From positions 90,002 through 154,001 of the forward strand of contig DCYT01000001.1 of assembly GCA_002331145.1 (NCBI GenBank): 64,000 nt of DNA, read 5' to 3'. The DNA is from Candidatus Minusculum obligatum. GTDB taxonomy: Bacteria; Patescibacteriota; Minisyncoccia; Phycocordibacterales; Phycocordibacteraceae. Below are positions 32,936 to 64,000 of the stretch, in pieces (position 1 is the stretch's first letter; each line of letters begins with the position of its first letter). Below the pieces are notes generated by a model. The model was not told where the DNA came from, did not search any database, and saw only the letters and a program-made list of their open reading frames with translations. The position numbers and the translations under genes are program-made.

Positions 32936-33000
32936 GGAAGTTCATCGAGAAGCAGCATCAGCTCGAAGGTAGGCAGCGCAGCGAGGGTAGATCTTGACTC

Positions 33001-33843: not shown

Positions 33844-33908
33844 CCTACGCGACCTTTCTCAGACCCACACGGCTTCAACGATAAACTGTTCACCTCATTC
33901 TTCGCAAT

Positions 33909-34049
33909 GTGGGGATAAAGACAATCGCCCAAGGTTTCACCCTGGGCGATTGTCGCTTCGATCTATCGATCGCGACTCTACTGAGCCGCGATTTTCACCA
34001 GCTTGGTCACACGTCTCGTGTGCAAATTTCCAAGCCTTGACGTTGGTGG
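33909..34049. repeat. Long direct-repeat copy 2 (the native tRNA-Ala 3' flank). It includes a hairpin (caatcgcccaaggtttcaccctgggcgattg) that is the likely tRNA terminator.
   Basis: See copy 1. It abuts or overlaps the tRNA 3' end. Confidence 0.7.
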
Positions 34050-34118
34050 ACTCGAGAGGAATCGAACCCCCGACCTCCTCAGTGCAAGTGAGGCGCTCTA
34101 GCCAACTGAGCTACGAGC
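34043..34118 (-). tRNA. tRNA-Ala (anticodon UGC) with an encoded CCA
   Basis: The minus-strand read is GGGCTCGTAGCTCAGTTGGCTAGAGCGCCTCACTTGCACTGAGGAGGTCGGGGGTTCGATTCCTCTCGAGTCCACCA. It has a G3:U70 pair, the anticodon loop CTTGCAC, and a T-loop TTCGATT. The T-stem contains two G-U pairs. Confidence 0.9.
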
Positions 34119-34141
34119 CCGTAAATGAGAGAATACAAGAC

Positions 34142-46480: not shown

Positions 46481-46990
46481 TTAGGCGGCTTCGGTCTGCC
46501 GAGGCTCGGTCTGAGCCGGACTGGTCGTCGTCTGAACCGTGAAGCCGCGGCGCTCGATGATATCGTCCACGACTTTCGAAACAGCGTTCTTGGCCGCCGA
46601 ACGATCGCCCAGGATGGTGCCGGTGAGGAAGTCGTAGACATCCTCATGACCCTTCGCCGCGAGATCTTCGATCACCTCGTTGAAGAGATCGTTGATCGCC
46701 GTAGAGTGATTGATCGCGAGCATCACCATCGACTGGGAGAATTCCGCGTCGGTCGTGAAGCGGGCCGTCAGCTCTTCCATCGAGACCGTGCCCTGACCCA
46801 GGGTCGCCCAGACGTCTTCAGCGAATTCCGGTTCGGAAGCTTCGATCGTCGGCGCGGTCGAAAGCGAAAGAACCGTAGCGAGCTTCAGAACGACTTCCGG
46901 GCCCTGGGCCGTAGCGTTGATCTGAGCGACGGCCGGCGTATTCAGAGCAGCGATGCAGACTGCAGTCAAAGAAAGAACAGTGCGCTTCAT
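46481..46990 (-). CDS. Secreted hypothetical protein on a GC-rich insert
   Basis: It has a signal peptide (MKRTVLSLTAVCIAALNTPAVAQ) and high local G+C. I recognise no domain. Confidence 0.5.
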   Translation of the reverse strand: MKRTVLSLTAVCIAALNTPAVAQINATAQGPEVVLKLATVLSLSTAPTIEASEPEFAEDVWATLGQGTVSMEELTARFTTDAEFSQSMVMLAINHSTAINDLFNEVIEDLAAKGHEDVYDFLTGTILGDRSAAKNAVSKVVDDIIERRGFTVQTTTSPAQTEPRQTEAA

Positions 46991-47119
46991 TTGGAATTCC
47001 TTTTCCATTTGAAAACTCGACTTTCGTCGAGTACCTGAACCATTTCAGGAATCAAGAAGATACCAGTATTAAAATATATGTCAAGGGGCAATTACAATAC
47101 TGCAATTGCCCCTAGAAAT

Positions 47120-49233: not shown

Positions 49234-49977
49234 ATGGAATTACAACTACTTATTGCAGGAGGAATTATTGCTTCAGCTTCATTAATTGGAGTAGTGACAA
49301 CACATGCACTCCTTGGGAAGTTTTTTACAAACAATATTCGATACTTGATAAGTTTTGCCACCGGAGTATTTATTGTACTTACCTACACACTTCTTGAAGA
49401 AGTTTTTCATGAAGGAGACATGCTCTACACAAGCCTTGCGATTGCCATTGGTTTTCTATTCTTTGCAGGACTTACTACTTTCCTCTCAAAAGCACATCAC
49501 CACCATGGACCCACACAAGAGCACTCTCACTCGTCTATTGATGCGAGGCGCATGCTTCTAGGAGACTCACTCCACAACATCGGAGACGGCATCTTGCTTG
49601 TGCCTCTTTTTATAGCAAGTCCCGTCCTAGGGGGTGCAGCTATTGTTGGAATTCTTATACACGAGATGGTTCAGGAAATTGCTGAATTCTTTGTACTAAA
49701 AGAAGCTGGTTACTCAACCAAGATGGCACTCTTCTTTAACTTCCTTACTGCCCTAACTATTTTCATTGGAATTGGTATTGGACTTCTTGTTACAGATATT
49801 GAAGGTGTTGTAATTCCTCTTCTTGCATTTACCGCAGGAGGATTCCTCCACATTATCCTTCGAGACTTTATCCCGAGTATCTTTAAATCGATTCATCATG
49901 AGTGCAAGCCTGTGCCACACATCATTTTCTTTGTAGCAGGACTCATACTTATGATCCTCGTAACTGGCGGGCACTAA
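49234..49977 (+). CDS. ZIP family metal (zinc) transporter
   Basis: It has His-rich motifs (KAHHHHGPTQEHSH; HNIGDG; HEMVQE). The start is set at MELQLL. Confidence 0.75.
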   Translation: MELQLLIAGGIIASASLIGVVTTHALLGKFFTNNIRYLISFATGVFIVLTYTLLEEVFHEGDMLYTSLAIAIGFLFFAGLTTFLSKAHHHHGPTQEHSHSSIDARRMLLGDSLHNIGDGILLVPLFIASPVLGGAAIVGILIHEMVQEIAEFFVLKEAGYSTKMALFFNFLTALTIFIGIGIGLLVTDIEGVVIPLLAFTAGGFLHIILRDFIPSIFKSIHHECKPVPHIIFFVAGLILMILVTGGH

Positions 49978-49987
49978 TATTAATTAA

Positions 49988-50022
49988 AAGAAGACCAGCT
50001 GTACGCTGGTCTTCTTTTTTAT
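49988..50022 (+). terminator. Rho-independent terminator of the ZIP gene
   Basis: The stem aagaagaccagc-gtac-gctggtcttctt is followed by tttt. Confidence 0.75.
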
Positions 50023-50178
50023 ATTTGGCCTGCCGAGCCTTGTTGCGCTACATTAGAGTGTATTGTACTTCTCCCTGAATATGCACAATACGGTAACGCA
50101 TAGAAACCCTAGCACAATGTCAATCACATGTAATTGTTTATTTCCATGTATAAACTGTGGAAAACTAACAAATACAGC

Positions 50179-51252
50179 TTAGTTAAGCTCTTTTTCTATA
50201 AAATTAGGTGATTTTTCGGCTTTTTTGAGTGTAAACACCACCCTTCCAAGCACTTGGTCTCTTTTCGTAACAACTTGCACACGCCATTTGCCCTCAAAAA
50301 TATTGCTCTTTTGCGTATATCCCCTAAAGCCACTATCTCTTCCTCCTGATATTGGGAAGCTTATTCTTCCTTGAGGAATCCATGCGTTACTCTCCGCATC
50401 AAAGTATTCCCATGAGTGAGCTATGTTTGTAGAAAGCCCTGTCGGAGCAAAGACGGCACTGTACATTGCAAGTGACTCTCCTTCTTCAAAATGAATAGTT
50501 GTCCCTGGAAGGATTTTCTCAAAGAAATTTTCTTTCTCTTCAACTCCAACAAATGTTTGCTCGCTCTTATATACATCGTGATAAATTCCTTTGTCTTTAA
50601 GAGCAAGCGGCACGGGAGGAATAATATTTGAGAAATAAAGGAGCTGAAGCAAGATAACAATGCTTCCGATACTAATACGAAGTCCGTTGCGAGAACAGTT
50701 CACTCTCTCTGGTACAAAAAGTTTTAAAAACTCAACAAGAAGGAAAATGGCAAATGCCGCAACTACATTTGCGAGAATAAATACCCATGCGCCAACTGCA
50801 CTTACCAATACAGGAATATACAGTGCAAAGAATGACGCGAGTGCTACAAATAGTACAGAGAACTGAAAGGCAAACTTTTGATATTTCTTTCTAAAGAATT
50901 CATTTCCAATAAGGAGACCTAGGAGGATGAGTACAAAAACAAGAGTTGTAGTAAACGATGCGCTCTTTATATAGAAAATAGTTAATGCACTAAAGAGTGC
51001 CCCAAATGACACCTGCATCAGTATAGGAGCTACAGTTCGTATATTCCCAAAGAACCAGCCTTTAAGATCCTTCCCTTCAATTATATTGATAAGAAGAATC
51101 CAAAGAACAATAAGCGAGGTATGTGTACCAAGCACCAACACTTCAAAGAAGTAGTCTATTCGAGTAAGAGTTAGAGCATCCCAAAAAAATCCAACAAGAA
51201 GAGCTCCTGCTGAAATTTTCTGCTGATGCTTTTTAATGAACTCTTTTATCAT
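50179..51252 (-). CDS. Polytopic membrane protein with a C-terminal soluble domain (hypothetical)
   Basis: The 357-aa ORF has about 7 TM helices, then a beta-rich C-terminal domain. Confidence 0.6.
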   Translation of the reverse strand: MIKEFIKKHQQKISAGALLVGFFWDALTLTRIDYFFEVLVLGTHTSLIVLWILLINIIEGKDLKGWFFGNIRTVAPILMQVSFGALFSALTIFYIKSASFTTTLVFVLILLGLLIGNEFFRKKYQKFAFQFSVLFVALASFFALYIPVLVSAVGAWVFILANVVAAFAIFLLVEFLKLFVPERVNCSRNGLRISIGSIVILLQLLYFSNIIPPVPLALKDKGIYHDVYKSEQTFVGVEEKENFFEKILPGTTIHFEEGESLAMYSAVFAPTGLSTNIAHSWEYFDAESNAWIPQGRISFPISGGRDSGFRGYTQKSNIFEGKWRVQVVTKRDQVLGRVVFTLKKAEKSPNFIEKELN

Positions 51253-51261
51253 TTAAAGTTA

Positions 51262-51296
51262 GTGTACTACAAAGCGCCTTGAGTAATACTCAAGGC
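51262..51296 (-). terminator. Perfect 12-bp-stem hairpin (aagcgccttgag-taata-ctcaaggcgctt) between genes
   Basis: Read directly. It lies after the stop of the 51306..51737 gene. Confidence 0.5.
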
Positions 51297-51305
51297 GCTT
51301 GTTAA

Positions 51306-51737
51306 TTAAAAGAATCCAGCACATTGGCGAATTCTGTTTGCTCGCTGGAAACCAGTCCCGTGAGCGTAATCTCCGCGCTGGCCATTTCTTAAGAAGTAAT
51401 TATATGCAGCAATTACTTCATTCCGTGGCGCATACTGTGCGGCCCAGCAGTCTGCTTCTGCTTCTGCAAACACTGGGTGTCGACGAGTTATTACATGTCG
51501 TAAGTTAACATGACCGAACTCGTGCGCTCTAAAAAAACCACAAACGAGAGCTCCTAACATCCGGCACTGGTTTGGATTGTAGATAATTACAACCTCTCCA
51601 GTATTAAGGCGAGTCACCATTGCAATGTCATTCAGTCTGACATCTGGTATCTCACGAGTCCTCCATTGCGCTTCTGCGGCCTGCGGAAGGGCAACAAATG
51701 AAAAGAACAAGGTGAAAAGAATAAAGAAAATTCTCAT
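51306..51737 (-). CDS. Small secreted HExxH protein (putative minimal zinc metalloprotease)
   Basis: It has a signal peptide and the HEFGHVNLRH motif. Its composition is somewhat GC-enriched. Confidence 0.5.
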   Translation of the reverse strand: MRIFFILFTLFFSFVALPQAAEAQWRTREIPDVRLNDIAMVTRLNTGEVVIIYNPNQCRMLGALVCGFFRAHEFGHVNLRHVITRRHPVFAEAEADCWAAQYAPRNEVIAAYNYFLRNGQRGDYAHGTGFQRANRIRQCAGFF

Positions 51738-51785
51738 TTAATCCTCCATCAAACTTTGATGACCATACAGTAAAACTCCCATAAT

Positions 51786-51816
51786 AAAAAGCCCCGAAAA
51801 TATTTCAGGGCTTTTT
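51786..51816. terminator. Bidirectional hairpin terminator (aaaagcccc...agggctttt) after the DEAD-box helicase
   Basis: Read directly. It is flanked by A and T runs. Confidence 0.6.
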
Positions 51817-51817
51817 A

Positions 51818-53125
51818 TTAATATCGCCTACGTCCTCCTCCGCTGTATGAACGTCGTGGTCGTGATGATGATTGTGGTCGACGATTAGATGATGGTCGTG
51901 CTGGTCGCTTCTGCTGTCCTGCTGAAGTTCCTCCGCCAATAAACGTAAACGCCTTTCCTGTCTGATCTCCACGTCCTGTTCGCCCAATTCGGTGAACATA
52001 ATCTTCATACGTCATTGGAAGATCGTAGTTGATTACGTGAGATACGTTAGGAATATCTAGTCCTCGTGCCGCAACGTCTGTTGCCACAAGAATATTAGAC
52101 TGATCCTCCTTAAAGCGTCGAAGAGCTCGCTGCCTTTGCGGGTGACTCTTGTCTCCGTGCAGTGCCTCACTCTTGAATCCTCGAGTAATAAGGTCTTTTG
52201 AAAGACGCTCAACCCCGTGCTTTGTTGCCCCAAAGACAATTGCTTTGTCACAATCTCGCTCATTAAGTAGATCGTGCAGCATTTCAATCTTCTCCTGCCC
52301 TTGTCCAATTCGAATAACATCCTGATCTACATTCTTTGATGTATCTCCAGTTGTAACTGAAATACGCACAGGGTTAGTAAGGAACTCTGAAATAAGTTTT
52401 TCAATATCCTTTGAAAGAGTTGCTGAGAAGAATAGCGTGTGACGCTTCTCATTCATTCCTTTTGCAATAAACCGCATGTCATTAACAAATCCCATATCAA
52501 GCATTCGGTCTGCCTCATCAAGAACGAGTGTCTCAAATGCAGCAAGCCTTATGCTCCGCCTTTCTACGTGATCTTTGATTCGCCCTGGAGTTCCAATAAT
52601 GAAATTGTTGTTGTTCTTAAGTTGCTTTAGCTGTGGACGCATTGGCGTTCCTCCAACAGTACATACAGAAGAAATATTCATTCCCTTTGTAAATCCCTTG
52701 AGCTCTTCATTAATCTGAATGGCAAGCTCTCGTGTAGGTGCCATTACAAGAACCTTTGTATATGGATTCTTAATTACCTTGGTAATAAGTGGGAGCAAGA
52801 ATGCTGCCGTCTTACCAGTACCTGTATTTGCAATACCTACTACATCCTCTCCATTTAAAACATGAGGAATAGCCCGATCCTGGATCGGTGTAGGATTCTC
52901 ATATCCTTTATCTATAATATTTTGCTTTAGCTCGGGAGCTAGATCAAAATCAACGAACTTATGCTCAGGAGTAAAGACAGCCTGCTCCTGCTTTGTTGCT
53001 ACTGCCTTGCTAACAAATTTAGCAGGGTCAATAAAAGTACCACGCTGTGGGCGCTTACCTCCTCTCCCCCCTCCACCACATGAAGAGCGCATCGGTCGTT
53101 TACTTGAAAACCGTTTCTTATACAT
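51818..53125 (-). CDS. DEAD-box ATP-dependent RNA helicase with an RG-rich C-terminal tail
   Basis: It has the Q-motif, AxTGTGKT, the DEAD box (VLDEADRMLDMGF), SAT and HRIGRTGR. Confidence 0.95.
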   Translation of the reverse strand: MYKKRFSSKRPMRSSCGGGGRGGKRPQRGTFIDPAKFVSKAVATKQEQAVFTPEHKFVDFDLAPELKQNIIDKGYENPTPIQDRAIPHVLNGEDVVGIANTGTGKTAAFLLPLITKVIKNPYTKVLVMAPTRELAIQINEELKGFTKGMNISSVCTVGGTPMRPQLKQLKNNNNFIIGTPGRIKDHVERRSIRLAAFETLVLDEADRMLDMGFVNDMRFIAKGMNEKRHTLFFSATLSKDIEKLISEFLTNPVRISVTTGDTSKNVDQDVIRIGQGQEKIEMLHDLLNERDCDKAIVFGATKHGVERLSKDLITRGFKSEALHGDKSHPQRQRALRRFKEDQSNILVATDVAARGLDIPNVSHVINYDLPMTYEDYVHRIGRTGRGDQTGKAFTFIGGGTSAGQQKRPARPSSNRRPQSSSRPRRSYSGGGRRRY

Positions 53126-53236
53126 TTTATTTACTTTTTTAACTTGCTCTAGTCCCAGAGATTTTCAGAGCAAAGTTCTTAAATCGTGAGAATTGAGTTA
53201 GCGAGAATATATAATATTTTTTATATTATGTCAATA

Positions 53237-55033
53237 TTATTTGCTTCCTGAGCGCTTTTCCCTTACTCGCTCTGATTCCTTTAGAAGCTGCTTCCGCAGA
53301 CGTACGCTATCAGGAGTAATCTCCAAATACTCATCACTATTCATAATCTCAAGCCCTCGCTCAATAGAAAGTGTAAGTGGTGGCACAAGGTCAACTGACT
53401 CATCAGAACTTGATGAGCGCATATTGGTTAGCTGCTTTCCTTTTGTAGGATTTACTGTCATCTCCTCCCCCTTTGCAGTATTTCCAATAACCATTCCCTC
53501 ATATACTTCAGTACCGGCTCCAATATATAGCTGCCCACGATCCTGAAGTCCCCACAGAGCAAATGCTGGAGTTTTTCCTTGCACCATTGAAACCATAGAC
53601 CCAACAGTCTTCCTTTGAATATCTCCTGCATATGGCTTAAAGCCAATAACACGTGATGCAAAAATTCCTTCTCCTCGTGTATCTACTACAAACTGGTTTC
53701 GATATCCAAGCAATCCTCGTGTGGGTCCTTCAAATGTAAGGCGTAGGATGGCATCTACATGCTCAAGGTTCTTCATCACAAAACCACGAACTCCAAGCTT
53801 CTCAATAACAACTCCTTGGAATTCCTCAGGTACATCGATAATTACTTCCTCAAATGGCTCCACCTTCTGACCCTCTTCCTCCTTAATAATTACCTGCGGC
53901 TGAGACACCTGAATCTCATATCCTGAACGCCGCATATTCTCAAGAAGAATTGCGATGTGAAGCTCTCCTCGTCCATATACTTTGAAATGATCTCCTGCAT
54001 CAAAATCAACCTTAAGTCCTACATTTACCTCAAGCTCACGCTCAAGATACTCTCTAATTTCTCGAGAAGTTACAGACTCACCTTCCTTCCCACGAAATGG
54101 AGAACTGTTTGCCATAAATGCTAGAGAGATCGTTGGCTCATCTACAGAAATAGCAGCAAGAGGCTCTACGCTCTCATCTGTAGTTACCGTCTCTCCAATA
54201 TCAATATTCTCAAGACCTGCAACAAGCACAATGTCTCCTGCCTTAGCTTCTTGTACTTCTACTCGCTCAAGACCATTAAATGAAAAGATCTTTGTTGTCT
54301 TTCCGGCCCGAGTCTCTCCATCTGGCTTTTTAATAAAAAGAGGATCTCCAAGCTTTAGTACTCCATCATATACTCGCCCTACTGCCATACGCCCAAGGAA
54401 GTTGTCATACGCTAGGTTAAATGACTGGAATCGAAGAGGCTTCTCTTCAAGCTCAGGACTTGATGCACTTGGTACGTGCTCAAGAATTGTATCGATAAGA
54501 GGAGTTAGATCCTTTGCCTCATCCTCCATCTTTTTCTTTGCAACTCCATCTCGTCCAATTGCGTACACTACTGGGAAGTTTGCCTGCTCATCACTTGCAC
54601 CAAGCTCATAGAAAAGCTCAAGCACCTGCTCCTCTGTTCGATCAGTGTCAGCGGCTGGCTTATCAATCTTATTGATAACAACAATAGGATTAAGCCCTAG
54701 GTCGAGTGACTTCTTTAGCACAAAACGAGTCTGCGGCATTGGCCCTTCTTGGGCATCAACAACAAGTAGCACGGTATCGATTGATCGAAGTACTCGTTCT
54801 ACCTCTGATCCAAAGTCAGCGTGGCCTGGAGTATCTACGATATTAATTTTTGTATCTTTATACGTAACCGAAGCATTCTTAGAGTAAATGGTAATACCAC
54901 GCTCTTGCTCAAGCGTGTTTGAATCCATTGATGAACCAGCTTTAACCGCGCCTGTCTGCTGCATAAGCGCATCAGTTAGCGTAGTCTTTCCGTGGTCCAC
55001 GTGGGCAATAATTGCAATGTTTCGAATTTCCAT
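53237..55033 (-). CDS. typA: Translational GTPase TypA/BipA
   Basis: It has the motif AHVDHGKTTLTDALM. Its 598-aa architecture is EF-G-like. Confidence 0.95.
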   Translation of the reverse strand: MEIRNIAIIAHVDHGKTTLTDALMQQTGAVKAGSSMDSNTLEQERGITIYSKNASVTYKDTKINIVDTPGHADFGSEVERVLRSIDTVLLVVDAQEGPMPQTRFVLKKSLDLGLNPIVVINKIDKPAADTDRTEEQVLELFYELGASDEQANFPVVYAIGRDGVAKKKMEDEAKDLTPLIDTILEHVPSASSPELEEKPLRFQSFNLAYDNFLGRMAVGRVYDGVLKLGDPLFIKKPDGETRAGKTTKIFSFNGLERVEVQEAKAGDIVLVAGLENIDIGETVTTDESVEPLAAISVDEPTISLAFMANSSPFRGKEGESVTSREIREYLERELEVNVGLKVDFDAGDHFKVYGRGELHIAILLENMRRSGYEIQVSQPQVIIKEEEGQKVEPFEEVIIDVPEEFQGVVIEKLGVRGFVMKNLEHVDAILRLTFEGPTRGLLGYRNQFVVDTRGEGIFASRVIGFKPYAGDIQRKTVGSMVSMVQGKTPAFALWGLQDRGQLYIGAGTEVYEGMVIGNTAKGEEMTVNPTKGKQLTNMRSSSSDESVDLVPPLTLSIERGLEIMNSDEYLEITPDSVRLRKQLLKESERVREKRSGSK

Positions 55034-55098
55034 AAAAAATACGGCCTTGGGGCCTGATTTCCCAAAGAGTACGTTAGAAGTGTACTAATGTCTAGGTG

Positions 55099-55515
55099 TT
55101 ATTGTTCTACCCGAGTAAATTCAAGAACTCCACCTCGATCTAGATAAATAAGAGTGAGTTTCTCTTCTGTCTTTTCTACCACCTTAAAGTAGAGAGACCC
55201 TTCTTCATCCATAAGCTCAAGGTACATTGCACCGTCTTCAATAGAATACGGGAAATCCACAAGTGAAGCATCTCCTAGGAAAGTAACCCATGGACCATTT
55301 GAAACCTCTTCTCCTTCATAGAGATCACTGTATCCTCCATTTTCATAAATGGTTCGTACAAAATTTGGATCTTCTATACTCTGCCAAACTCCTGCGAGTG
55401 AATCTGCTTCAAGCGGTGCATCCACCACCTGCCTCTCCTCAACAATTTTGTTTAGATAATAAAAACCTCCTCCAATTAGAATAATTGATACAACAAGAAT
55501 AATAAGATTCTTCAT
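55099..55515 (-). CDS. Membrane-anchored hypothetical protein
   Basis: The 138-aa ORF has an N-terminal TM segment. Confidence 0.5.
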   Translation of the reverse strand: MKNLIILVVSIILIGGGFYYLNKIVEERQVVDAPLEADSLAGVWQSIEDPNFVRTIYENGGYSDLYEGEEVSNGPWVTFLGDASLVDFPYSIEDGAMYLELMDEEGSLYFKVVEKTEEKLTLIYLDRGGVLEFTRVEQ

Positions 55516-55524
55516 ACCTATGTA

Positions 55525-56772
55525 TTATACATTCTTCCCCGCAATATATCCGCTGGTCCAGCAAAGCTGTAATGAGTACCCTCCTGTAGGTCGTGTGATA
55601 TTGAAAAGGTCTCCAGTAATAAATAGATTCTTTATTACCTTTGACCGCATAGTCTTTGTATCTATTTCAGTTAGTGGCACTCCTCCATCTGCAATAACAG
55701 CTTTCTCAGGATCCATAAGTCCTGAAATGACCAGAGGAATACTCTTTAGAAATTCAACCATTCCCTTTCGTTGCTCTTTTGTAACTGAGTGCACCTTTAT
55801 TTCTGTATCAATATTTGGGAAACGCGTTACAAGCACATCGTGCGTTCCAGCTGGAAGGAATCCCTTGAATACATTTGCTACATTTTTATTCTTATTCGCG
55901 TCAAAGAGTTCTTGGATCTTTGCATCGAGTGCCCCAAGGTCCAAATCTGGAAATAGATCAATATGCGCATTTACAATTCCTTCATGTAGAAGGTCTTGCA
56001 CTTTAGCTGCACTGTTTAGAATAGTTGGCCCAGATAAACCAAAATGTGTGAACAAAATCCTTCCACGCTTTGAGAACTTCTTTTCCTTTCCAAGGAGGAA
56101 TGTGATCTTTGCATCAGGTGCTGAGTTTCCTGACAAATCTCGAATCCACTTTTGTTCAACCTTTAGAGGAACAATGGTTGGCTTTGGCTCATGTGCTGTG
56201 TGCCCAAGACTTTCAAGCCAAGCAAATCCATCTCCTGTAGAACCAGTCTCGGGGTGCGAGACTCCTCCTGTTGCAAGGACAATAGATTCAGCTGCAAACT
56301 CCTGATCTCCAGCACGCACACGTGTGATTTTCCCACTTCGCTTCACAAGCTCTGTTACCTCAATCTTTTTTCTAACTTCTACTTTGTATTCTCGAAGCAA
56401 GTCCTCAAAAAACTTACACACGTCCTCTGCACTCTCTGATGCTGGAAATGCTCTATTATTTTCCTCTTCCATAATAGGGAGTCCGTTTGATTCAAAGAAT
56501 TCTCTTGTTTCTTTCATTCCAAACTGTGCAAATGGAGAGAAGAGGAATTTATCTGCTTCTCCAAAGTTTGAAAGCAGCTTTCGTGTATCTTCTTCAGTAT
56601 TTAAAATATTGCATCGTCCCCCTCCTGAGATTCGAAGCTTCTCACCAAGATTCTTATTCTTCTCAAGCAAAAGCACACGCTTTCCGCGCTTTCCTGCAAT
56701 AACTGCTGTCATCATTCCGGAAGCTCCTCCTCCGATTACGATGACGTCGTATGTATTTTTAGGTAATCCCAC
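55525..56772 (-). CDS. HI0933/BaiN-like FAD-dependent oxidoreductase
   Basis: It has the Rossmann GxGxxG motif (YDVIVIGGGASGMMTAVIAGKRG) and ISGGGRCNILN. Confidence 0.85.
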   Translation of the reverse strand: MGLPKNTYDVIVIGGGASGMMTAVIAGKRGKRVLLLEKNKNLGEKLRISGGGRCNILNTEEDTRKLLSNFGEADKFLFSPFAQFGMKETREFFESNGLPIMEEENNRAFPASESAEDVCKFFEDLLREYKVEVRKKIEVTELVKRSGKITRVRAGDQEFAAESIVLATGGVSHPETGSTGDGFAWLESLGHTAHEPKPTIVPLKVEQKWIRDLSGNSAPDAKITFLLGKEKKFSKRGRILFTHFGLSGPTILNSAAKVQDLLHEGIVNAHIDLFPDLDLGALDAKIQELFDANKNKNVANVFKGFLPAGTHDVLVTRFPNIDTEIKVHSVTKEQRKGMVEFLKSIPLVISGLMDPEKAVIADGGVPLTEIDTKTMRSKVIKNLFITGDLFNITRPTGGYSLQLCWTSGYIAGKNV

Positions 56773-56799
56773 GAAGTCACACTAACACTAATACCTTTT

Positions 56800-56835
56800 A
56801 ATAGAAAAGGCCCGACCAACAAGTTGATCGGGCCT
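56800..56835 (-). terminator. Terminator hairpin of the GC-rich ORF (ggcccga...tcgggcc)
   Basis: Read directly. A T-run follows on the minus strand. Confidence 0.55.
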
Positions 56836-56853
56836 TTGTGCGGCTGGAAACTG

Positions 56854-57183
56854 CTAGCATGCCGGACGGAAATCGTTCCGAGCTGCAAGGTAGTGCTCCC
56901 ACCCCTCGCTCCTAGACCACGGCCTCTCCAGCAGTCGCTTGAAAGCGACCGGGTGTTTGGAGAGGAACGAGAGGCCCTCATGGGCCCAGTAACGAACCTC
57001 ATCGGGGTAAGCCCACCCCTGAATCGATTCATCATGCAGTAGGCGCATGAGATTGCCGGCATGGTAGATGTTCTTCGCATAACGATAGAACAAAAACCAG
57101 CGAATTGCCGAGAGAGATTCGAAGCGCAGAAGATACGCCACGACCTCAATCATCACACGCTTAATCCAAGTTTCCTCGAACAT
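56854..57183 (-). CDS. Hypothetical protein on a GC-rich single-gene insert
   Basis: The 109-aa ORF has its own terminator. Its W/Y/H-rich composition is plausible. The competing overlapping ORFs look less protein-like. Confidence 0.4.
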   Translation of the reverse strand: MFEETWIKRVMIEVVAYLLRFESLSAIRWFLFYRYAKNIYHAGNLMRLLHDESIQGWAYPDEVRYWAHEGLSFLSKHPVAFKRLLERPWSRSEGWEHYLAARNDFRPAC

Positions 57184-57242
57184 AATATTTCTCCCCGTGC
57201 TAAAGATCCTATATTTTTATTATAACATTTATATTATTAATG

Positions 57243-57491
57243 TCAATTTATAAGTGAAAGTTTTTCTGCTCTCGTTAGTTTCTTTAGCTCTATCTCTCTA
57301 CGCATTGCATCCCCTTTATTATCAAAAGCTTCTTTGTAGACAAGCTCTACAGGTCTTCGTGCTTTTGTGTACTTTGCGCCAATCTTCTCAGAATTGTGCT
57401 CTAAAACTCTACGCTCTACATCTATTGTATAGCCAGTATATAAAGTGTTATCTGCACACTTAAGTATGTAGACAGTATGGTTCATTACCAA
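57243..57491 (-). CDS. GIY-YIG nuclease superfamily small protein
   Basis: It has the motif YILKCADNTLYTGYTIDVERRVLEHN. Confidence 0.75.
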   Translation of the reverse strand: MVMNHTVYILKCADNTLYTGYTIDVERRVLEHNSEKIGAKYTKARRPVELVYKEAFDNKGDAMRREIELKKLTRAEKLSLIN

Positions 57492-57499
57492 AGAATACC

Positions 57500-58993
57500 T
57501 TATTTCTTCTTCCCCAGATCAAGGACATCATCTATATGTATTTGATCCACAAACTCAGGTACATGAGATACAAGAATCATTGCCCCTTTATATTCATCTA
57601 GTGCTTTTGCAATTACCGGGATATGCCTAAAGTTAATGTGGTTTGTTGGCTCATCAAGAATGAGAAGCCCTGGCTCAATTATTTTAAGACGTGCAAAAGC
57701 AACAAGTCCTTTCTGTCCCTCTGAAAGGTTTCCGATCTTTGTTTTCATTATCTCTCCATCAAGCAAGAACCCTGCAGCAATTGATCGCATATCTTCTTGA
57801 ATCTTTTTGTCCATTGCATCCATAAGACAATCGAATACTGTCTGATCAAAGTCTAGGTTTGAGAAGTCTTGTCGGTAGTATCCAATCTTTACTCCCTTTG
57901 CCACCTCCTCACCAGCTGCCTCACCGGATGCAAGAGATTCAAGCAGTGTTGTCTTTCCAATACCATTTGGTCCGATGATCTGGAGGTGACTTCCTCGCTT
58001 AAGTGTAAGCTCACACTTCACATCCTTTGGCTTATGATCTTTTATTACCTTGTATGAAGTTAGCTCAAGTACATTAAGAGGAATGTCTTTCTGTGTAGGA
58101 ATTTCAAAATCTCGAATAGTTCTATCTTCTTTCCGTACATCAACTTTATTTTCTTCTGCAAGATCTACCTTCTCTCGCATACGCTTTGCAACCATACGCA
58201 TCTGCCCTCCTTTATTTGCAAAGAAGTTCGCCTTGTCTTTGTTTGCTTGAATTTCCTTTGAAAGCTGTGCGTTCTTTCTTTTCTCTTTCTCTACCCGTAC
58301 AGAAATCTCTTCTACCACATCGTTATAGTTTCCTGTGTACTGCTCAATACTTCGTGTCTGTGTATTTAAATAAAGCACTCCCTGTGTAAATGCATTAAGG
58401 AAGTCTGCATCATGGGAAATAACAATAACGGTCTTCTTATACGCTTTAAGAAAATCCGTTAGATGTTCAATTCCTTCTACATCTAGATTATTTGTTGGCT
58501 CATCAAGTAAAAGCACATCAGGATTCTGAATAAGAGCAGAAGCCAAAAGAAGCCTCGCCTGCTGTCCTCCAGAGAAACTTCCTACAAGACGATCTTTAAA
58601 CGTTTCTTTTACTTCTTTGTCTTTTGGAGAGAGATTTACAACCTCCAAGATTGCATCAATGCGCGGATCAATGTCATAGACCTTTTCACTAAAACACTTT
58701 GAAAAGAAGTCTCGAACTGTTATCTCAAGATCTTCTCGAGGAATAACCTGTCTTGATACTGCAATACTCGTACCATGTACGATATTTATTCTTCCTTCAT
58801 TTGGTGTGTGCTGTCCTGTTATAAGTCCAAAGAGTGTACTTTTCCCAGCACCATTTTGACCCATAAGGGTTAGCTTTGCTCCTCTTCGTATAGAAAAAGA
58901 CGACTCGATGAGAATCGGCTTATTAGCGGTGTGCTCGTATGAGACATCATTAAAATTGATGAGTGCTCCGTTACCTGACATAAGCGTGCACAC
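57500..58993 (-). CDS. ABC-F family ATPase (two NBDs, no TM segment)
   Basis: It has two Walker A motifs (GQNGAGKST; GPNGIGKTT) and two signature motifs (FSGGQQARL; LSEGQKGLV). Confidence 0.9.
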   Translation of the reverse strand: MCTLMSGNGALINFNDVSYEHTANKPILIESSFSIRRGAKLTLMGQNGAGKSTLFGLITGQHTPNEGRINIVHGTSIAVSRQVIPREDLEITVRDFFSKCFSEKVYDIDPRIDAILEVVNLSPKDKEVKETFKDRLVGSFSGGQQARLLLASALIQNPDVLLLDEPTNNLDVEGIEHLTDFLKAYKKTVIVISHDADFLNAFTQGVLYLNTQTRSIEQYTGNYNDVVEEISVRVEKEKRKNAQLSKEIQANKDKANFFANKGGQMRMVAKRMREKVDLAEENKVDVRKEDRTIRDFEIPTQKDIPLNVLELTSYKVIKDHKPKDVKCELTLKRGSHLQIIGPNGIGKTTLLESLASGEAAGEEVAKGVKIGYYRQDFSNLDFDQTVFDCLMDAMDKKIQEDMRSIAAGFLLDGEIMKTKIGNLSEGQKGLVAFARLKIIEPGLLILDEPTNHINFRHIPVIAKALDEYKGAMILVSHVPEFVDQIHIDDVLDLGKKK

Positions 58994-59014
58994 TACACTA
59001 CGTACTCTTTAGTA

Positions 59015-59347
59015 TCAATCTTGATATCTAAGAACTTCTTCTGCTAGGTCAACAAGTTGGCTACCACCCTCCATTGCATCCTCAGGTACTGACCACCAGT
59101 TTTTAATAACCACAGGATCTTTTTTGTCTTTTCTTGTGTATGAAAATTGCTTTGATCCTTCGCTCTCATACCTTTTCTGCACTTCAGAGTTTGTAACTTT
59201 AAAATACAACTGATCTTCAATTATTATCCCAAGTTGTTTATTTTGAACCTTTAGAAGTACACCTCCAAACATTCTCTTCACCTCTATATTTCCTAGAGGA
59301 GAAAGAAGGTCAAGAATGTAGTTTGTGAATTCCTTTGAGGTACTCAT
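59015..59347 (-). CDS. TfoX N-terminal-domain protein
   Basis: It has the KRMFGG core. It is 110 aa. Confidence 0.65.
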   Translation of the reverse strand: MSTSKEFTNYILDLLSPLGNIEVKRMFGGVLLKVQNKQLGIIIEDQLYFKVTNSEVQKRYESEGSKQFSYTRKDKKDPVVIKNWWSVPEDAMEGGSQLVDLAEEVLRYQD

Positions 59348-59509
59348 GTATATAGAATACCAAATCTGCTACCCGTTCAATGCCACTATTCGAACTTTAA
59401 ATGAGCCAGGCCTTGATGCGGCGAACGATAACGAGGTTGATAACGCGGACGCGGCATCTGCAAGGAAGAGGACGTAACGCCACAAGCGCACGACCTATTA
59501 CTCGGTAGA

Positions 59510-60832
59510 TCACTGCCCAGGTCGTCGTAAAATAACGTTCTGACGACTTCTAGCGACACAAATTCCGTTACGAATGGCGAAGCACTCAACATAGTGGTTG
59601 CCATTGTGCCTAGTGGATTCTGGGTCGTTTTTCGTTTGGTGATCTGTGATCTCTCCACGCGGTTGATCACAGCCATCGTCGTTCTTCACCTTCCATTTGA
59701 ATATGTCCGCCACGGGCGGATTTTGGCCGAGCCTGAATTCGATCTTTCGATCCACGTTTATCAGTCCTACTGCATCCAAGAAAAACGCCCGAAAGCCGCC
59801 ATCACGCGGTTGTACATGCCCGACGATTGAGAACTCGGCCTCAGTTAGAACTGGTATGCCCTGATCAAACAAAAACTCTTCTGACCCGCGCGCTCTTGGT
59901 CTTGGTGGAAGAGAAAGCAGATCTCCCACATCGTCGCCTTCATCAAATTTTTCCAACCCAACGAGAAATGCATCACGTGCTTGGATGATCAGGATTCTGT
60001 CCTGCTCATTTAGATCGTTGACGTAGTCGTCAATATTGCGATCTGAGTCGGCCCTATCAGGAAATTGGGGGTAGCGAACGAAATCTGGAACCCGTCGGAA
60101 GAACTCAAAGACAATATCGAACATCTCTGCTCGTGGGTTTTGCTGCACCCACGTTGTTATCGCCTGCTCCAGATGGAAGGACTTCAGAGCAAAGCTGTCG
60201 TTCCTTTCTTTGTGAGCACAGCGCCACCCCTTCACAAGCTTCACCGCTTTGCGAAAGTCATCGTTCTGGGCATTTGTTTGGCTGGCGATAGCTATGTATC
60301 CACGCGGGTCGGATTTGATCCAACCCATTTCGCGCTGCCCGCTCCTCACCGCCTCACGAATTTGTTGCCGTTCAACACGTGATGCTCGCGCGATCTCGGG
60401 AACAACATACGTGTCATCGCCAAACTCGTTCTGTCCATTGATGTAGGCTGGCACGACATCGACGCTGAACACCTCTTCTTCGCCGTCGAGAAAGCGGATT
60501 GTAACCGAGTGGGTTTGTCGTCCGATATGTACTTCATAATGAGTAGGATTTTCGTACTCAGCGCGCATCTGGCGCTCAAGGTCTTCCAGCGCCTGCGATG
60601 GGTCGTGATGTTCCCGGTCCCAGTTGCCCAATACGAAGAGCACATCAAGGTCGTGCAACGGGGTGATCGCCGTATATCGAGGGAAGGAACCGATTTGAAG
60701 CGAGTTCGCAACTCCTAGAACCTGCTGCACAGAGTTGTACACTAGACTTACAAAATCCCGCTCATCCTGGGTTGGGGTCAAATTATCGCGAACGTATGAC
60801 CGAAAAGCCGCGTTGAATGCATTTTTATTCAT
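59510..60832 (-). CDS. cGAS/DncV-like (SMODS/CD-NTase-type) nucleotidyltransferase, 440 aa
   Basis: It has an N-terminal helix, then GSFPRYTAITPLHDLDV (GS-x11-[D]h[D]h), a third acidic residue in VFSVDVVP, and KAVKLVKGWR. There is a C-terminal ~170-aa extension with a Cys-containing tail. Confidence 0.65.
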   Translation of the reverse strand: MNKNAFNAAFRSYVRDNLTPTQDERDFVSLVYNSVQQVLGVANSLQIGSFPRYTAITPLHDLDVLFVLGNWDREHHDPSQALEDLERQMRAEYENPTHYEVHIGRQTHSVTIRFLDGEEEVFSVDVVPAYINGQNEFGDDTYVVPEIARASRVERQQIREAVRSGQREMGWIKSDPRGYIAIASQTNAQNDDFRKAVKLVKGWRCAHKERNDSFALKSFHLEQAITTWVQQNPRAEMFDIVFEFFRRVPDFVRYPQFPDRADSDRNIDDYVNDLNEQDRILIIQARDAFLVGLEKFDEGDDVGDLLSLPPRPRARGSEEFLFDQGIPVLTEAEFSIVGHVQPRDGGFRAFFLDAVGLINVDRKIEFRLGQNPPVADIFKWKVKNDDGCDQPRGEITDHQTKNDPESTRHNGNHYVECFAIRNGICVARSRQNVILRRPGQ

Positions 60833-61337
60833 GGCCAGTTGTGATCATGCTCACGATAATATCGTTTAGAAGACGTCCACGGAAATTGACCAGAACAACA
60901 TTACGGTGCTGCTCGAGCTCCTGAATGGCATCGTTGTCGACACGGCCACCGGCTTGCGGCGCATACACAACCAGCGCTGTTCGATCCTTCTTCAGCTCCA
61001 AGATTCGTCGAAGACCGGCAAGGTTCCAATCTGGCCAATGAACAAGGAATGTTGTCGCCTCTTCTGCCCTCCCGGCGTCATTCAACATACTGACTGACAT
61101 AATATTTTTCTTAGTGAAGAGTTTCGTGTCGCCGAGAAGGTCAACGAGGCTTGTAAGCGTGGAGCCCTTGGCAAACACCACGATCTTCTTCCGCCGCAGT
61201 CCCTTCCCCAGCCGCCAAAGTGCAGGCAGGAACCCACTAAACGTCAAATAGCCAGCGTAAAGCGCACCGGCGATAGCGATTAAGATTCCGCCCCATCGAA
61301 AGTACGGAAGGGCCGCTTGTACGAATTCCATCATTGT
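60825..61337 (-). CDS. Membrane protein partner. It has an N-terminal ~26-residue hydrophobic segment (1-2 TM) and a C-terminal ~120-aa alpha/beta domain. It is an effector-like candidate.
   Basis: The start is at ATG 61337, where MMEFVQ is preceded by GGTGGT-N6, or at GTG 61376. It overlaps the NTase start by 8 nt. The strand pattern is IVVFAKG / TFLVHW / ALVVYAPQ / VVLVNF. Confidence 0.55.
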   Translation of the reverse strand, partial: TMMEFVQAALPYFRWGGILIAIAGALYAGYLTFSGFLPALWRLGKGLRRKKIVVFAKGSTLTSLVDLLGDTKLFTKKNIMSVSMLNDAGRAEEATTFLVHWPDWNLAGLRRILELKKDRTALVVYAPQAGGRVDNDAIQELEQHRNVVLVNFRGRLLNDIIVSMITTGHE

Positions 61338-61443
61338 TAAACCACCATACCATGGATTGTATTTTGTATTGCCCACACCAAGATGAGCTGCTTCGATCAG
61401 AAACGCAAAATATCAGCCTGATAGGTTCGACGGATGCCAGTCT

Positions 61444-61911
61444 GTGAGACTTGGCGGATTTGTTTCCCCAATCCCAGTCGAGTTGTTGGATTTGGCCGCA
61501 CAACGCCTTCTTGATTCACGCGCGTTGATCGACGGGTTCGAAACTTCGATACAAGCCCAGCATTTCTTTCTTTCGCTGGCCAGCGCGGCTGCGGTCGGCA
61601 AGTCAACGAAGCTCGCGGAGAGATTGACCTTCGCAGTCAGTGCGCACTGTCAGCAAGTGAAGCATCGACTGCCAATAGAGATCGCCATGGTGATCGGTGT
61701 AAGCGCGTCTGCCGCGCAACCCTCCGAGCAAGATGCCGATACTTGGCTCGGGGAGTACGCAACAAGGCTTGCTTTCGGAGTTAGAGAAACCGATGAAGCC
61801 AAAAGGTTGTTGGGCGTGATAAGCACGCTTTGCCGAGTACGCCCCTCTCTACGAGCACAGCTCAGCAAGTCGATTGTCGCTGCCCGCGCGGCTAGTTGGT
61901 TAGATGACTGA
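61444..61911 (+). CDS. Hypothetical protein (GTG start) on the GC-rich island
   Basis: The 155-aa ORF is only weakly supported, because GC-rich DNA yields many ORFs. Confidence 0.25.
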   Translation: MRLGGFVSPIPVELLDLAAQRLLDSRALIDGFETSIQAQHFFLSLASAAAVGKSTKLAERLTFAVSAHCQQVKHRLPIEIAMVIGVSASAAQPSEQDADTWLGEYATRLAFGVRETDEAKRLLGVISTLCRVRPSLRAQLSKSIVAARAASWLDD

Positions 61912-62217
61912 CTAGGATCTTCGCCCATAGCTGAGTGTTCCGCCTGGTGGCAACTCGAATGGGCGCTTTGTCGCTGATTGTGATTATCCGGCGGTGGAGC
62001 GGCATCGACATCGAACGTCCGCTTTCGGGATATACCTGACATTGAATACGCTCTGAGCGAGACGCAACTTGCGAATGCTCTGACCGGTCAAATTGCATGA
62101 TCTTGAATGAGGTAAATTTAGCACTCCAAATGGGATGCATACTCGGGCCGGGGCGCCGCAACGATGCGCGTATATCGCGCCTGAACAAGCCCATGTGGAT
62201 AGCGAAGCTATGGCACA

Positions 62218-62601
62218 ATGAGTGTGCCTTTGCCGCTAATTGCACAGGCCTATCCCTCTATGATCAACGCCAATGCCATTCGGCTTCGCGCCTGCCGCAG
62301 ACGCGGCGGGCTTGATCAAGTCGACCTCGCTTTTTTACTTGGCATCAGTCGTCACGCCGTCTCAAGGCTTGAACGTGGACTGGCAACGCCAAGTGCTGAA
62401 ATACTTATTCGTTACGAGCTAATTTTCGAAGTGCCGGCTGCAAACGTCCTACCCGACACCCGCATCCTCCTATCTGGACAAATACACGCTCGAGCGCAGC
62501 AAGCCTTAAGCCGATGCCGCCTGTCGAAGTCTGAGGCCGGTCGACAGAAGGCCATCTTTCTCCAGACGATGTGCGGACGGTTGGCTCGACCCAGCCAATG
62601 A
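62218..62601 (+). CDS. XRE-family helix-turn-helix transcriptional regulator
   Basis: It has the HTH region QVDLAFLLGISRHAVSRLERG. Confidence 0.5.
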   Translation: MSVPLPLIAQAYPSMINANAIRLRACRRRGGLDQVDLAFLLGISRHAVSRLERGLATPSAEILIRYELIFEVPAANVLPDTRILLSGQIHARAQQALSRCRLSKSEAGRQKAIFLQTMCGRLARPSQ

Positions 62602-63083
62602 CTCCCCTCTCAATTTGGGTGCTTGCGGTGGAACCCCACGCACACGGCCTAGCCTTCGCGGCGTTCGCAGCCGGTGGAGATCTCGTCGATTGGGGAAGCT
62701 ATGATGGACGCGATTGTGAGTGCAGCGCTATGCGTCAACGCTGCAGACGCTTGGTCCATGAACTTTCCCCTTCTATCGTTGGAATTGAAGATGTGGACCA
62801 GCCAGATTGCGTGCGTTCCAAGCGAATGCGCGACTTGTTGAGGTCGGTTCGCCAAGATGTCTTGGATAACGGTATAGCGGTCGTCCGCGTGCCGCGTCGG
62901 TTGATGCGCAAGCGTGTGAAGGGGTTGGATCGACATTCCTCTACACTCTACCACCTGAGTGACCGGTCTAGTGAGGTTCAGTACCTATCGGCGCACCGAT
63001 CCACCCGAGCGGTGCCGGTACGAAAGGCCATGCGTATCGGGTTGGCGGTCATCGCGACGAGGCGCAAGTCGAATATCTCGTGA
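62571..63083 (+). CDS. Hypothetical protein downstream of the XRE gene
   Basis: The 170-aa ORF overlaps the XRE gene end. No motif was recognised with confidence. Confidence 0.3.
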   Translation: MRTVGSTQPMTPLSIWVLAVEPHAHGLAFAAFAAGGDLVDWGSYDGRDCECSAMRQRCRRLVHELSPSIVGIEDVDQPDCVRSKRMRDLLRSVRQDVLDNGIAVVRVPRRLMRKRVKGLDRHSSTLYHLSDRSSEVQYLSAHRSTRAVPVRKAMRIGLAVIATRRKSNIS

Positions 63084-63315
63084 ACTTGGCTACCATCGGA
63101 GTTCGAAGGCTTATTCCTCAACCGGCCCTCTGAACCAACGTCAAGTCAGGTGTTCAACCTCGGTCAAAATTGCTCGACGAGGCTCTTCAAATTGGCCGGC
63201 TCCGATTAGCCCGTGATCGTCTGCCAAGATGCCTATCCGGCAGGCACAATTGAGGGGATTCGCCTGGTCTCTGGTTGTGATAGACTGTCTCCACACTAAT
63301 AGTCGGAGGCGGATA

Positions 63316-64000
63316 TGGACGATGCTGCAGGCAAAGCTGTAGCGATATGGATTCGCGTATCCACCGAAGACCAGGCGCGTGGCGAAAGCCCCGAGAACCA
63401 CGGACAACGTGCAAAGTTTTACGCGCACTCCAAAGGCTGGTCTGTGGAGCGCGTCTATGACCTCTCAGGGGTATCGGGACAGTCGGTGGCCAACCACCCT
63501 GAAGCCAAACGAATGATGGCCGACATCCAGAGCGGCGCGATCACAGGCCTTATCTTTTCCAAGCTCGCTCGGCTGGCCCGCAATACCAAAGAGCTACTCG
63601 ATTTCGCCGAGTTCTTTCGCGCCAAAGACGCAGATCTAATCTCACTCCAAGAAGCGATGGATACGTCATCGCCTGATGGCCGTCTTTTCTACACGATGAT
63701 TGCTGCAATGGCGCAATGGGAGCGAGAAGAGATCGCCGAACGTGTTGCGGCCTCCTTTCCCGTGCGCGCCAAACTAGGCAAGCCTCTCGGAGGCCAGACG
63801 ACGTTTGGCGATCATTGGAAAGATGGTGAGCTGGTTCCCAACCCCGATGAAGCACCCGTTCGCAAGCTCATCTATGAGTTGTTTGCCGAGCACAAACGCA
63901 AGAAGACCGTGGCTCGTCCCCTCAATGAACGCGGCTACAGGCCCCGTAAGGGCGCCAGGTTCTCCGACACCACGATCACTCGGCTAATCACCGATCCAAC
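63316..64000 (+). CDS. Large serine recombinase (resolvase/invertase catalytic domain + recombinase domain). The C-terminus is beyond the window.
   Basis: The ATG at 63316 is preceded by GGAGG. The protein begins [20 protein letters not shown] (catalytic Ser), followed by [13 protein letters not shown]...[31 protein letters not shown]. It is not in the ORF track because there is no stop within the window. Confidence 0.85.

Follow-up and report, generated by a model that had tools for sequence, protein, structure and literature searches.

A putative alphaproteobacterial-type island at a tRNA-Gln gene of a marine Patescibacteria genome

The island and its two junctions

The window analysed here is a stretch of 64,000 nt from contig DCYT01000001.1 of Candidatus Minusculum obligatum (assembly GCA_002331145.1), and this report concerns the GC-rich DNA at its right-hand end, which appears to be the left end of a large integrated island. 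Coordinates marked ext continue the window numbering past 64,000. The island begins beside tfoX, a host gene encoding a TfoX_N-only protein of 110 residues (59,015–59,347, minus strand; Pfam TfoX_N, E = 2.1e-18; 88% nucleotide identity to tfoX of the related genome UBA3533). GC content is 0.423 in the host part of the window (1–59,365) and 0.538 in the island part (59,376–64,000); the step from 0.42 to 0.54–0.57 falls at 59,366–59,376 and the elevated level is kept thereafter. In 200-nt intervals the GC content is 0.33–0.45 up to 59,399 and 0.46–0.62 from the interval 59,300–59,499 through 64,000. Intervals of 4 kb average 0.4245 in the host (standard deviation 0.020) and 0.575 in the island, about 7 standard deviations off, and 31 kb of recovered island DNA has a GC content of 0.573. 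The correlation of tetranucleotide frequencies with the host profile falls from +0.89 in host DNA to about −0.2 in the island. The original prediction, made from the window sequence alone, had described an abrupt switch near 59.4 kb from AT-rich host to GC-rich DNA lasting to the window end, and both the GC intervals and the k-mer comparison that it proposed agree with this. DNA identity to UBA3533 is 88–96% as far as 59,365, and homology then ends (59,365–59,375). With tfoX on the minus strand, the junction lies 18–28 nt upstream of its start codon, so that the island does adjoin tfoX as predicted, but does not follow the end of the gene.

The ABC-F protein encoded beside the island is 99% identical to that of UBA3533 and 82–85% identical to those of NORP156 and of two complete genomes, UBA2163 (721 kb) and UBA2103 (579 kb). 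On account of these ABC-F matches and the DNA identity to UBA3533, the AT-rich host is, as judged from sequence, a marine ultra-small Patescibacteria bacterium closely related to the metagenome-assembled genome UBA3533. The island is absent from three related genomes (UBA3533, NORP156 and UBA2103), and the proviso that neighbouring genomes might carry the same genes at the same composition does not apply. In all three, dnaX and tRNA-Gln(TTG) lie upstream of tfoX; the tRNA gene and tfoX adjoin each other in UBA2103, and a distance of 2 to 4.6 kb separates them in UBA3533 and NORP156. In UBA2103 the ATG of tfoX lies 24 nt beyond an identical tRNA-Gln, and this empty site at the 3′ end of tRNA-Gln supplies the bacterial attachment site (attB) that was to be defined from genomes lacking the insertion.

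The tRNA-Gln/tfoX site is a variable hotspot. In UBA3533 (L006 7,054–9,037) it holds genes at host GC for a HAD hydrolase, a glyoxalase, a 147-aa open reading frame (ORF) and a tRNA_bind protein, and in NORP156 (L007 5,029–9,641) it holds 4.6 kb of host-GC cargo. A Peptidase_S51 gene that is absent from the window lies between the tfoX and ABC-F genes of UBA3533 (L006 9,388–9,963).

The sequence was extended by exact-protein look-ups and then by three further look-ups, reading on to ext 90,288. Window positions 49,510–64,000 are matched at 100% identity by the Logan contig SRR5324488_7 (41.8 kb), and from the window end to ext 90,288 the GC content is 0.55–0.63 throughout. At the other end, contig L168 carries in order dnaX, tRNA-Gln, a jump to a GC content of 0.52–0.61, and the gene for a full-length serine recombinase of 511 aa, referred to below as LSR-511. 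The island is thus bounded by tfoX on one side and by tRNA-Gln(TTG)/dnaX on the other and measures 45,135 bp between its two core copies, with about 38 genes, or about 7.5% of a genome of about 0.6 Mb. The far end that had been expected outside the window was located in this way, and GC-rich DNA running on for 45.1 kb contradicts an end of the element near the recombinase at the window edge. Of the 45 kb, 33 kb was recovered; 11.7 kb (ext 90,289–101,962) falls outside the recovered part. A single Tara scaffold (TARA_072_MES_0.22-3_scaffold60333_1) has the order tfoX (236,818–237,150), cyclase, GspE, RHS, alcohol dehydrogenase, LSR-511 (280,877–282,412) and dnaX. All of these proteins are also encoded on contigs of about 602.7 kb (602,686 bp; 602,674 for LSR-511), and the DnaX of the island genome (P0124), 98% identical to the UBA3533 protein, is encoded on the same 602,686-bp contig. 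Every contig with a gene for the exact TfoX (10 contigs) or for the cyclase (11 contigs) carries the left junction. Two contigs from one Tara sample (L002 and L003, from JGI and Logan assemblies) end at the identical base, ext 64,912, and the start of L168, at ext ~101,963, is just 2.5 kb short of the far end. Assembly of the island interior is poor in that sample, for which sequence shared with another organism or strain variation could be the reason.

The two junctions have in common an 8-bp crossover core, GCTACCCG (59,368–59,375 in the window), which is the reverse complement of the 3′ acceptor end of tRNA-Gln, CGGGTAGC. Alignment of the junction sequences places this core, of at most 8 bp, at both island junctions and in the empty site, and it constitutes the direct repeat that was sought at the second boundary. 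The left attachment site (59,368–59,444, plus strand; blastn and nhmmer) consists of a host arm and a P′ arm and reads GCTACCCG followed by TTCAATGCCACTATTCGAACTTTAAATGAGCCAGG. Its P′ arm is 83–97% identical to sequence just downstream of related recombinase genes (blastn; L171 11,433–11,495 and 13,902–13,933), the nhmmer profile of the site has 59,348–59,444 as its sole match in the window (E = 8e-24), and a 28-mer is unique in the window with 0 copies expected. Written in window orientation, the element attachment site (attP) of the relatives L171, L173 and L179 reads CCCTACTGGCTGCCCG joined to TTCAATGCCACTATTCGAAC, and attB of UBA2103 reads AATTTGCTACCCG joined to ACAGGGATTCGAACCCC, or in a shorter listing TTTGCTACCCG joined to ACAGGGATTCGAACCCC. 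The window junction reads AAATCTGCTACCCG joined to TTCAATGCCACTATTCGAAC (in the shorter listing, CAAATCTGCTACCCG joined to TTCAATGCCACTATTCGAAC), and the far junction reads CCCTACTGGCTACCCG joined to ACAGGGATTCGAACCCC and runs into the tRNA gene. Both are exact reciprocal hybrids of attB and attP that share only the short core, and tRNA-Gln is intact after the insertion. A circular form of the element would read ...CCCTACTGGCTACCCGTTCAATGCC... across its attP junction, and a restored attB would read ...AATCTGCTACCCGACAGGG....

LSR-511 is encoded 40 kb beyond the window (window-equivalent 103,074–104,609, from contig L168), and the tail of its ORF runs into tRNA-Gln. The protein matches the Pfam families Resolvase (4.3e-25), Recombinase (1.9e-14) and Zn_ribbon_recom (3.4e-5; 24.6 bits against a cut-off of 25.3), contains a CxxC...CxxxxC motif and the catalytic motif YTRVST, and has the domains of a large serine recombinase. 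Other marine assemblies, among them a 3.37-Mb contig, encode relatives of 502–515 aa (about 89% or more identical), and there the recombinase gene runs at its 3′ end directly into the sequence with which the island begins in the window. At nine or more loci, in three or more distinct arrangements, attP lies inside the last codons of the recombinase gene. Nucleotide identity to L171 is 88% at the right end of the island, and amino acid identity between the recombinases is 89%. LSR-511 is the likely integrating enzyme in view of the short core, the lack of any regenerated tRNA segment and the location of attP within the last codons of the gene, and the position of attP next to the gene in all relatives supports this. 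The signature of an Islander tDNA island is absent, in that the repeat is 8 nt long with no tRNA fragment, the enzyme on site is a serine recombinase and the recovered 33 kb has no Phage_integrase domain.

Gene content

The genes next to tfoX, which had been taken as hypotheticals, are by sequence a type I operon of the cyclic-oligonucleotide-based anti-phage signalling system (CBASS). The first of these (59,510–60,832, minus strand) encodes a cGAS/DncV-like nucleotidyltransferase (CD-NTase) of 440 aa with an SMODS nucleotidyltransferase domain, an AGS-C sensor and the motifs G48-S49 and D61xD63. This cyclase matches the PADLOC Cyclase model PDLC00785 over its full length (E = 7.7e-192), Pfam AGS_C (2.9e-12) and SMODS (1.2e-7), and the NCBIfam CBASS cyclase at 7.5e-28, under the curated cut-off. 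The second gene (60,825–61,334, minus strand) encodes a transmembrane effector of 169 aa as called, with the ORF extending to 61,376, and matches the PADLOC Effector '1TM' model PDLC00664 (E = 4.3e-50). It overlaps the start of the cyclase gene by 8 nt, and the two therefore form one operon. A GS...DxD cyclase with an adjacent effector is the arrangement of type I CBASS; the neighbours are a 155-aa ORF of no known function and tfoX, and the operon has no Cap2/Cap3 or HORMA/TRIP13 genes beside it. The two-gene make-up, an SMODS/AGS-C cyclase with a transmembrane effector and full-length PADLOC matches, is that of known type I systems, whereas its position in a Patescibacteria chromosome on apparently imported DNA is different. 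To judge from these genes, the CBASS is presumably active.

The CBASS operon is directed into tfoX, with no predicted terminator in between, and after the insertion tfoX may be transcribed from island promoters. A promoter and terminator scan round the junction gave counts no higher than in shuffled sequences and is uninformative on tfoX transcription. The competence-related genes dprA (L168 4,062–4,928) and tfoX lie on opposite sides of the insertion site. The att profile found no second internal copy in 59.4–90.3 kb of the kind that would make CBASS a discrete cassette.

Divergent from the operon lies the gene for the hypothetical protein of 155 aa (61,444–61,911, plus strand), which is also called in independent assemblies. 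The XRE-family helix-turn-helix (HTH) regulator of 127 aa predicted at 62,218–62,601 (plus strand) is confirmed by Pfam HTH_3 (E = 6.9e-11); it has 74% nucleotide identity to an XRE module in L171 and a weak CapH-like match in PADLOC (4.4e-5). Its stop codon is overlapped by a gene called at 62,598–63,083 (plus strand) for a hypothetical protein of 161 aa. Reading these two genes as a CapH/CapP-like pair is unsupported, with the CapH match weak and a peptidase motif absent. The description of the window part of the island as hypotheticals holds for the 155-aa and 161-aa ORFs, which match no family, and fails for 59,510–61,376, where the CBASS cyclase and effector lie. Neither these two nor the 98-aa, 113-aa and 1,244-aa ORFs have a match in PHROGs, NCBIfam, Pfam or PADLOC.

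The last gene in the window (63,315–64,000, plus strand) is the 5′ part of a truncated large serine recombinase, with Pfam Resolvase (E = 1.2e-30) and Recombinase (E = 1.5e-8), no other Pfam domain, and the catalytic motif IRVSTEDQ. Its ORF comprises 417 codons and extends to 64,568; true recombinase homology ends at ~64,139, after the first ~275 residues. Residues 7–275 are 60% identical to a 642-aa recombinase encoded further inside the island, with no homology in the 140 codons that remain (blastp, tblastn), and identity to LSR-511 is 21%. The last ~110 codons of the ORF overlap a complete gspG out of frame (start 64,237; Pfam T2SSG, 1.6e-30). Large serine integrases require a zinc ribbon and a coiled coil for att binding and synapsis, and the window-edge recombinase is read as a remnant because it is without this C-terminal part. 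By these alignments it is a different enzyme from LSR-511, cut off where gspG begins; it is probably inactive, and on the same evidence it is not the integrase of the island. It would then be a relic of an earlier element. The large serine recombinase predicted at the window edge is accordingly present in its Resolvase and Recombinase domains but is not a whole enzyme, being truncated after residue ~275. That it is the only recombinase in the window is in line with tblastn searches with two serine and two tyrosine recombinase queries, which found no other at their limited sensitivity.

Past the window, gspG is followed on the opposite strand by a type II secretion system (T2SS) cluster with candidates for GspC, GspM and GspL (without Pfam match), two pseudopilins, GspF, GspE, GspK and the GspD secretin. 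Of the T2SS components, GspD, E, F, G and K and the N-methyl pseudopilins are present and gspO is absent. Compared with Tara contigs, the island copy of the cluster has lost gspO, and the adjacent double-HTH gene has become a pseudogene (ext 78,863–79,227, minus strand); L086 has an intact homologue of that gene next to gspO and gspD. An inversion that split the truncated recombinase and left its C-terminal HTH fragment at ext 78,863–79,227 was considered and rejected, because the intact double-HTH homologue adjoins gspO and gspD in this donor-like contig and the fragment is a native neighbour of the secretion cluster. Patescibacteria-type cells are generally described as having no outer membrane, and it is not obvious what purpose secretion through a secretin would serve in them. 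The loss of gspO suggests decay of the system, although its long ORFs are nevertheless intact, and from its gene content the system is presumably recent, non-functional baggage. Further cargo comprises the 113-aa ORF, a 1,411-aa RHS/YD protein, a zinc alcohol dehydrogenase, the S and E subunits of glutamate mutase, a fatty-acid desaturase, the 1,244-aa ORF of no known function, and a third serine recombinase (ext 87,466–89,391, minus strand), which is 642 aa long and has two HTH domains of XRE type in its C-terminal part.

Elsewhere in the window, a chain of repeats resembling tRNA 3′ ends extends over 28,500–34,120 and ends at tRNA-Ala(TGC) (34,044–34,120, minus strand). It includes three copies of TTTGTGGAGCRGTTAGGAGCTGGTTGGAATCT, two copies of TTTGTGGGGTTGATCGGAAGTTAGGTCGAAC and a 103-nt repeat, and its cargo comprises DUF305/DUF411 genes and a GC-rich segment at 31–34 kb with 546-aa and 280-aa ORFs without family match. 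No integrase was seen in this array, which looks like the product of serial insertions at tRNA-Ala. The suggestion that the recombinase at the window edge could service the array in trans is unsupported, because the repeats resemble the 3′ end of tRNA-Ala and do not match the island att, which occurs once in the window, and because the enzyme is truncated. Between uvrB and tgt, a 175-aa ORF with a signal peptide (46,481–47,008, minus strand), at a GC content of 0.56–0.62 against a background of 0.42 and with no Pfam match, may be another small foreign insert.

Integration, origin and alternative explanations

The explanation that we favour, with a probability of about 0.8, is that a 45,135-bp island of alphaproteobacterial type was inserted by a serine recombinase at tRNA-Gln in a Patescibacteria genome of about 0.6 Mb, and that the window contains its left end. 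The circular form of the element would have carried attP embedded in the 3′ end of the 511-aa recombinase gene. Strand exchange by LSR-511 would have taken place within GCTACCCG, between attP and the terminal bases of tRNA-Gln as attB, and would have left the tRNA intact. The recombinase gene would thereby have landed at one end of the island and the DNA downstream of attP at the end seen in the window, and this DNA would comprise the type I CBASS operon, the XRE module and older cargo. The remaining cargo, with the Maricaulis-like T2SS, the RHS toxin, the metabolic genes and the 642-aa recombinase, would be donor DNA carried along.

We infer that the donor was an alphaproteobacterium. Matches to GspE at 70–75% identity come from marine Alphaproteobacteria, one protein being labelled 'uncultured Maricaulis sp.', the T2SS cluster shares its gene order with Tara contigs whose GC content is 0.61–0.63, and the best plasmid match of LSR-511 is from Sulfitobacter. 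A scan of metagenome contigs with GspE returned relatives at 75% identity or less, which were used as donor-like comparators. Entry by conjugation from a host cell or by natural competence is possible.

Several points weigh against this explanation. No empty-site variant from the same population occurs among the contigs encoding the exact TfoX, and no excised circle was observed. The attP of the element itself is inferred from relatives that are 83–97% identical, and the relatives of LSR-511 are seen only with unrecombined attP-like copies and with no native alphaproteobacterial attB. The donor assignment comes from protein identities of 70–79%, with no near-identical donor genome. The 11.7 kb at ext 90,289–101,962 could hold transfer genes or a tyrosine integrase, the usual class at tRNA targets (PMC4383910). 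All sequences are from metagenome assemblies, and no long-read or single-cell confirmation was seen.

Composition and genes on the two sides of the junction belong to different phyla, which would also be expected of an assembly or binning chimera in which a Patescibacteria contig was fused to an alphaproteobacterial one with no real insertion, and the break of two Tara contigs at ext 64,912 and the start of L168 2.5 kb inside the island could be taken in the same sense. The two sides share only the 8-bp core, however, and a chimera is effectively ruled out because 8 bp is too short for any assembler to join and because both reciprocal junctions exist, each the exact product of attB and attP, in several independent assemblies; the identical junction is present in Logan, JGI, ENA, Tara and NCBI assemblies of several samples, and syntenic host genes lie on both island flanks. 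It is scarcely more credible that CBASS, the XRE gene and the window-edge recombinase, which are contiguous and of which the XRE module recurs at 74% identity in L171, are a small self-contained element of about 5 kb mobilised by that recombinase, a view not far from the original prediction. The enzyme has no zinc ribbon or coiled coil and nothing past about residue 275, the tail of its ORF being out-of-frame gspG; 40 kb more of foreign DNA follows, 59.4–90.3 kb contains no second att copy, and the left att fits the attP of the other recombinase family.

Two further alternatives accept the island as real. A tyrosine integrase encoded in the 11.7 kb could have carried out the integration, with LSR-511 merely adjacent; tRNA 3′ ends are the classic targets of such enzymes, serine integrases have been stated as not known for tRNA genes (PMC4383910), and relatives such as L171 have tyrosine integrases nearby. 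Against this, attP falls within the last recombinase codons in the nine or more loci described above, an 8-bp core with no regenerated tRNA fragment is typical of serine integrases and not of tyrosine tDNA integrases, which bring along a longer piece of the tRNA (PMC4383910), and the genes called on the recovered 33 kb include no Phage_integrase domain, so that we consider this course of events unlikely. The element could also be a prophage or a self-transmissible integrative and conjugative element (ICE), given that the relatives of LSR-511 adjoin ParB_N, DUF3768 and TrwB/DUF87-type genes typical of alphaproteobacterial ICEs and that 11.7 kb of the island lies outside the recovered DNA. The recovered DNA, however, encodes no capsid, terminase or tail proteins and its sole PHROG match is the XRE regulator, a scan of IMG/VR with LSR-511 found no relative, no relaxase or type IV secretion genes occur in the recovered 33 kb, and the 602,686-bp contig yielded no ParB_N orthologue among the 120 best matches to the L171 query. 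A prophage or ICE is quite improbable on this evidence; of the 'phage, ICE or island' originally proposed, the island stands, and phage or conjugation genes are lacking in 33 of the 45 kb.

Beyond the insertion itself, the island would on a more tentative view be the record of DNA passing from a Maricaulales-like host to its Patescibacteria epibiont, by way of a serine-recombinase element family that in marine Alphaproteobacteria would shuttle att-bounded defence cassettes (Gabija, Shedu, AAA_13, CBASS) in the manner of the staphylococcal cassette chromosome (SCC), with an integrase able to use a tRNA attB across phyla; we regard this as possible, with the odds against it.

Relation to known systems and significance

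In staphylococci, tandem SCC-like defence cassettes are moved by Ccr serine recombinases (PMC11470126). The island shares with SCC/SCCmec (CcrAB/CcrC) a large serine recombinase, a short core, a cargo placed at the 3′ end of a conserved RNA-related housekeeping gene, defence systems among that cargo, and, in its relatives L171 and L173–L181, tandem att-bounded cassettes. It differs in its target (tRNA-Gln here, rlmH in staphylococci), in its Patescibacteria host and alphaproteobacterial cargo, in its single att pair, and in its recombinase, whose matches to NCBIfam Ccr-like models are sub-threshold (82–141 bits against cut-offs of 700–900). Tandem arrays of the SCC type are found only in the relatives L171, L173–175 and L179–181; the island has a single att at either end, with no further copy within 59.4–90.3 kb. 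In L171 (11,401–13,977), L173 (7,400–13,099) and L179 (7,400–9,105), two to four tandem att-like copies of ~100 nt each are present. These copies bound defence cassettes, with AAA_13 in one relative, Gabija GajA/GajB in another and Shedu plus Gabija in a third, and the marine genomes that contain such SCC-like arrangements have a GC content of about 0.54. CBASS takes the equivalent slot in the island.

An intact tRNA at the island end, a streamlined marine genome and a cargo that differs between sister genomes are features in common with tycheposons and other tRNA islands. In the accretion model for tycheposons, degenerate integrases and donor DNA accumulate beside tRNA genes in streamlined marine genomes (Hackl et al., bioRxiv 10.1101/2020.12.28.424599), and the degenerate recombinases and apparent flanking DNA of a previous host seen here are as that model predicts. 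Tycheposons and Islander islands, unlike the present one, have tyrosine recombinases and a long regenerated tRNA segment; here there is a serine recombinase and a repeat of 8 bp. Horizontally acquired islands making up as much as 13% of the genome have been described in a survey of groundwater Patescibacteria (PMC12455944), where islands were predicted by composition and most single-gene transfers were within the phylum. A word search of that paper returned no mention of integrase, recombinase or tRNA. The present case differs in that both att junctions are known to the base, as are the empty site and an attP relative, and in that the donor type comes from another phylum. Serine integrases have been stated as not known to target tRNA genes (PMC4383910), and a non-exhaustive literature search found no later counter-example.

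Genomic islands in Patescibacteria and site-specific islands driven by large serine recombinases were already known. What appears to stand out here is the cross-phylum donor type, the size of the island relative to the genome, the Gram-negative secretion system and the tRNA target of a serine recombinase.

Patescibacteria are ultra-small, mostly uncultured and presumed to be epibionts, and their hosts are rarely known. A 45-kb insertion of alphaproteobacterial, Maricaulis-like type points to a candidate partner organism. It also indicates that a genome as reduced as this one can take up, and keep, a large mobile element carrying a Gram-negative secretion system and an anti-phage CBASS. The recombinase and its att sites make up a pair in which the target of a large serine recombinase appears to be a tRNA gene, and the relatives of LSR-511 show SCC-like arrays of defence cassettes outside the staphylococci. 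If the island was in fact shuttled from host to epibiont, a candidate host would be named for an uncultured marine lineage of the candidate phyla radiation, and tRNA genes would be added to the targets of large serine integrases.

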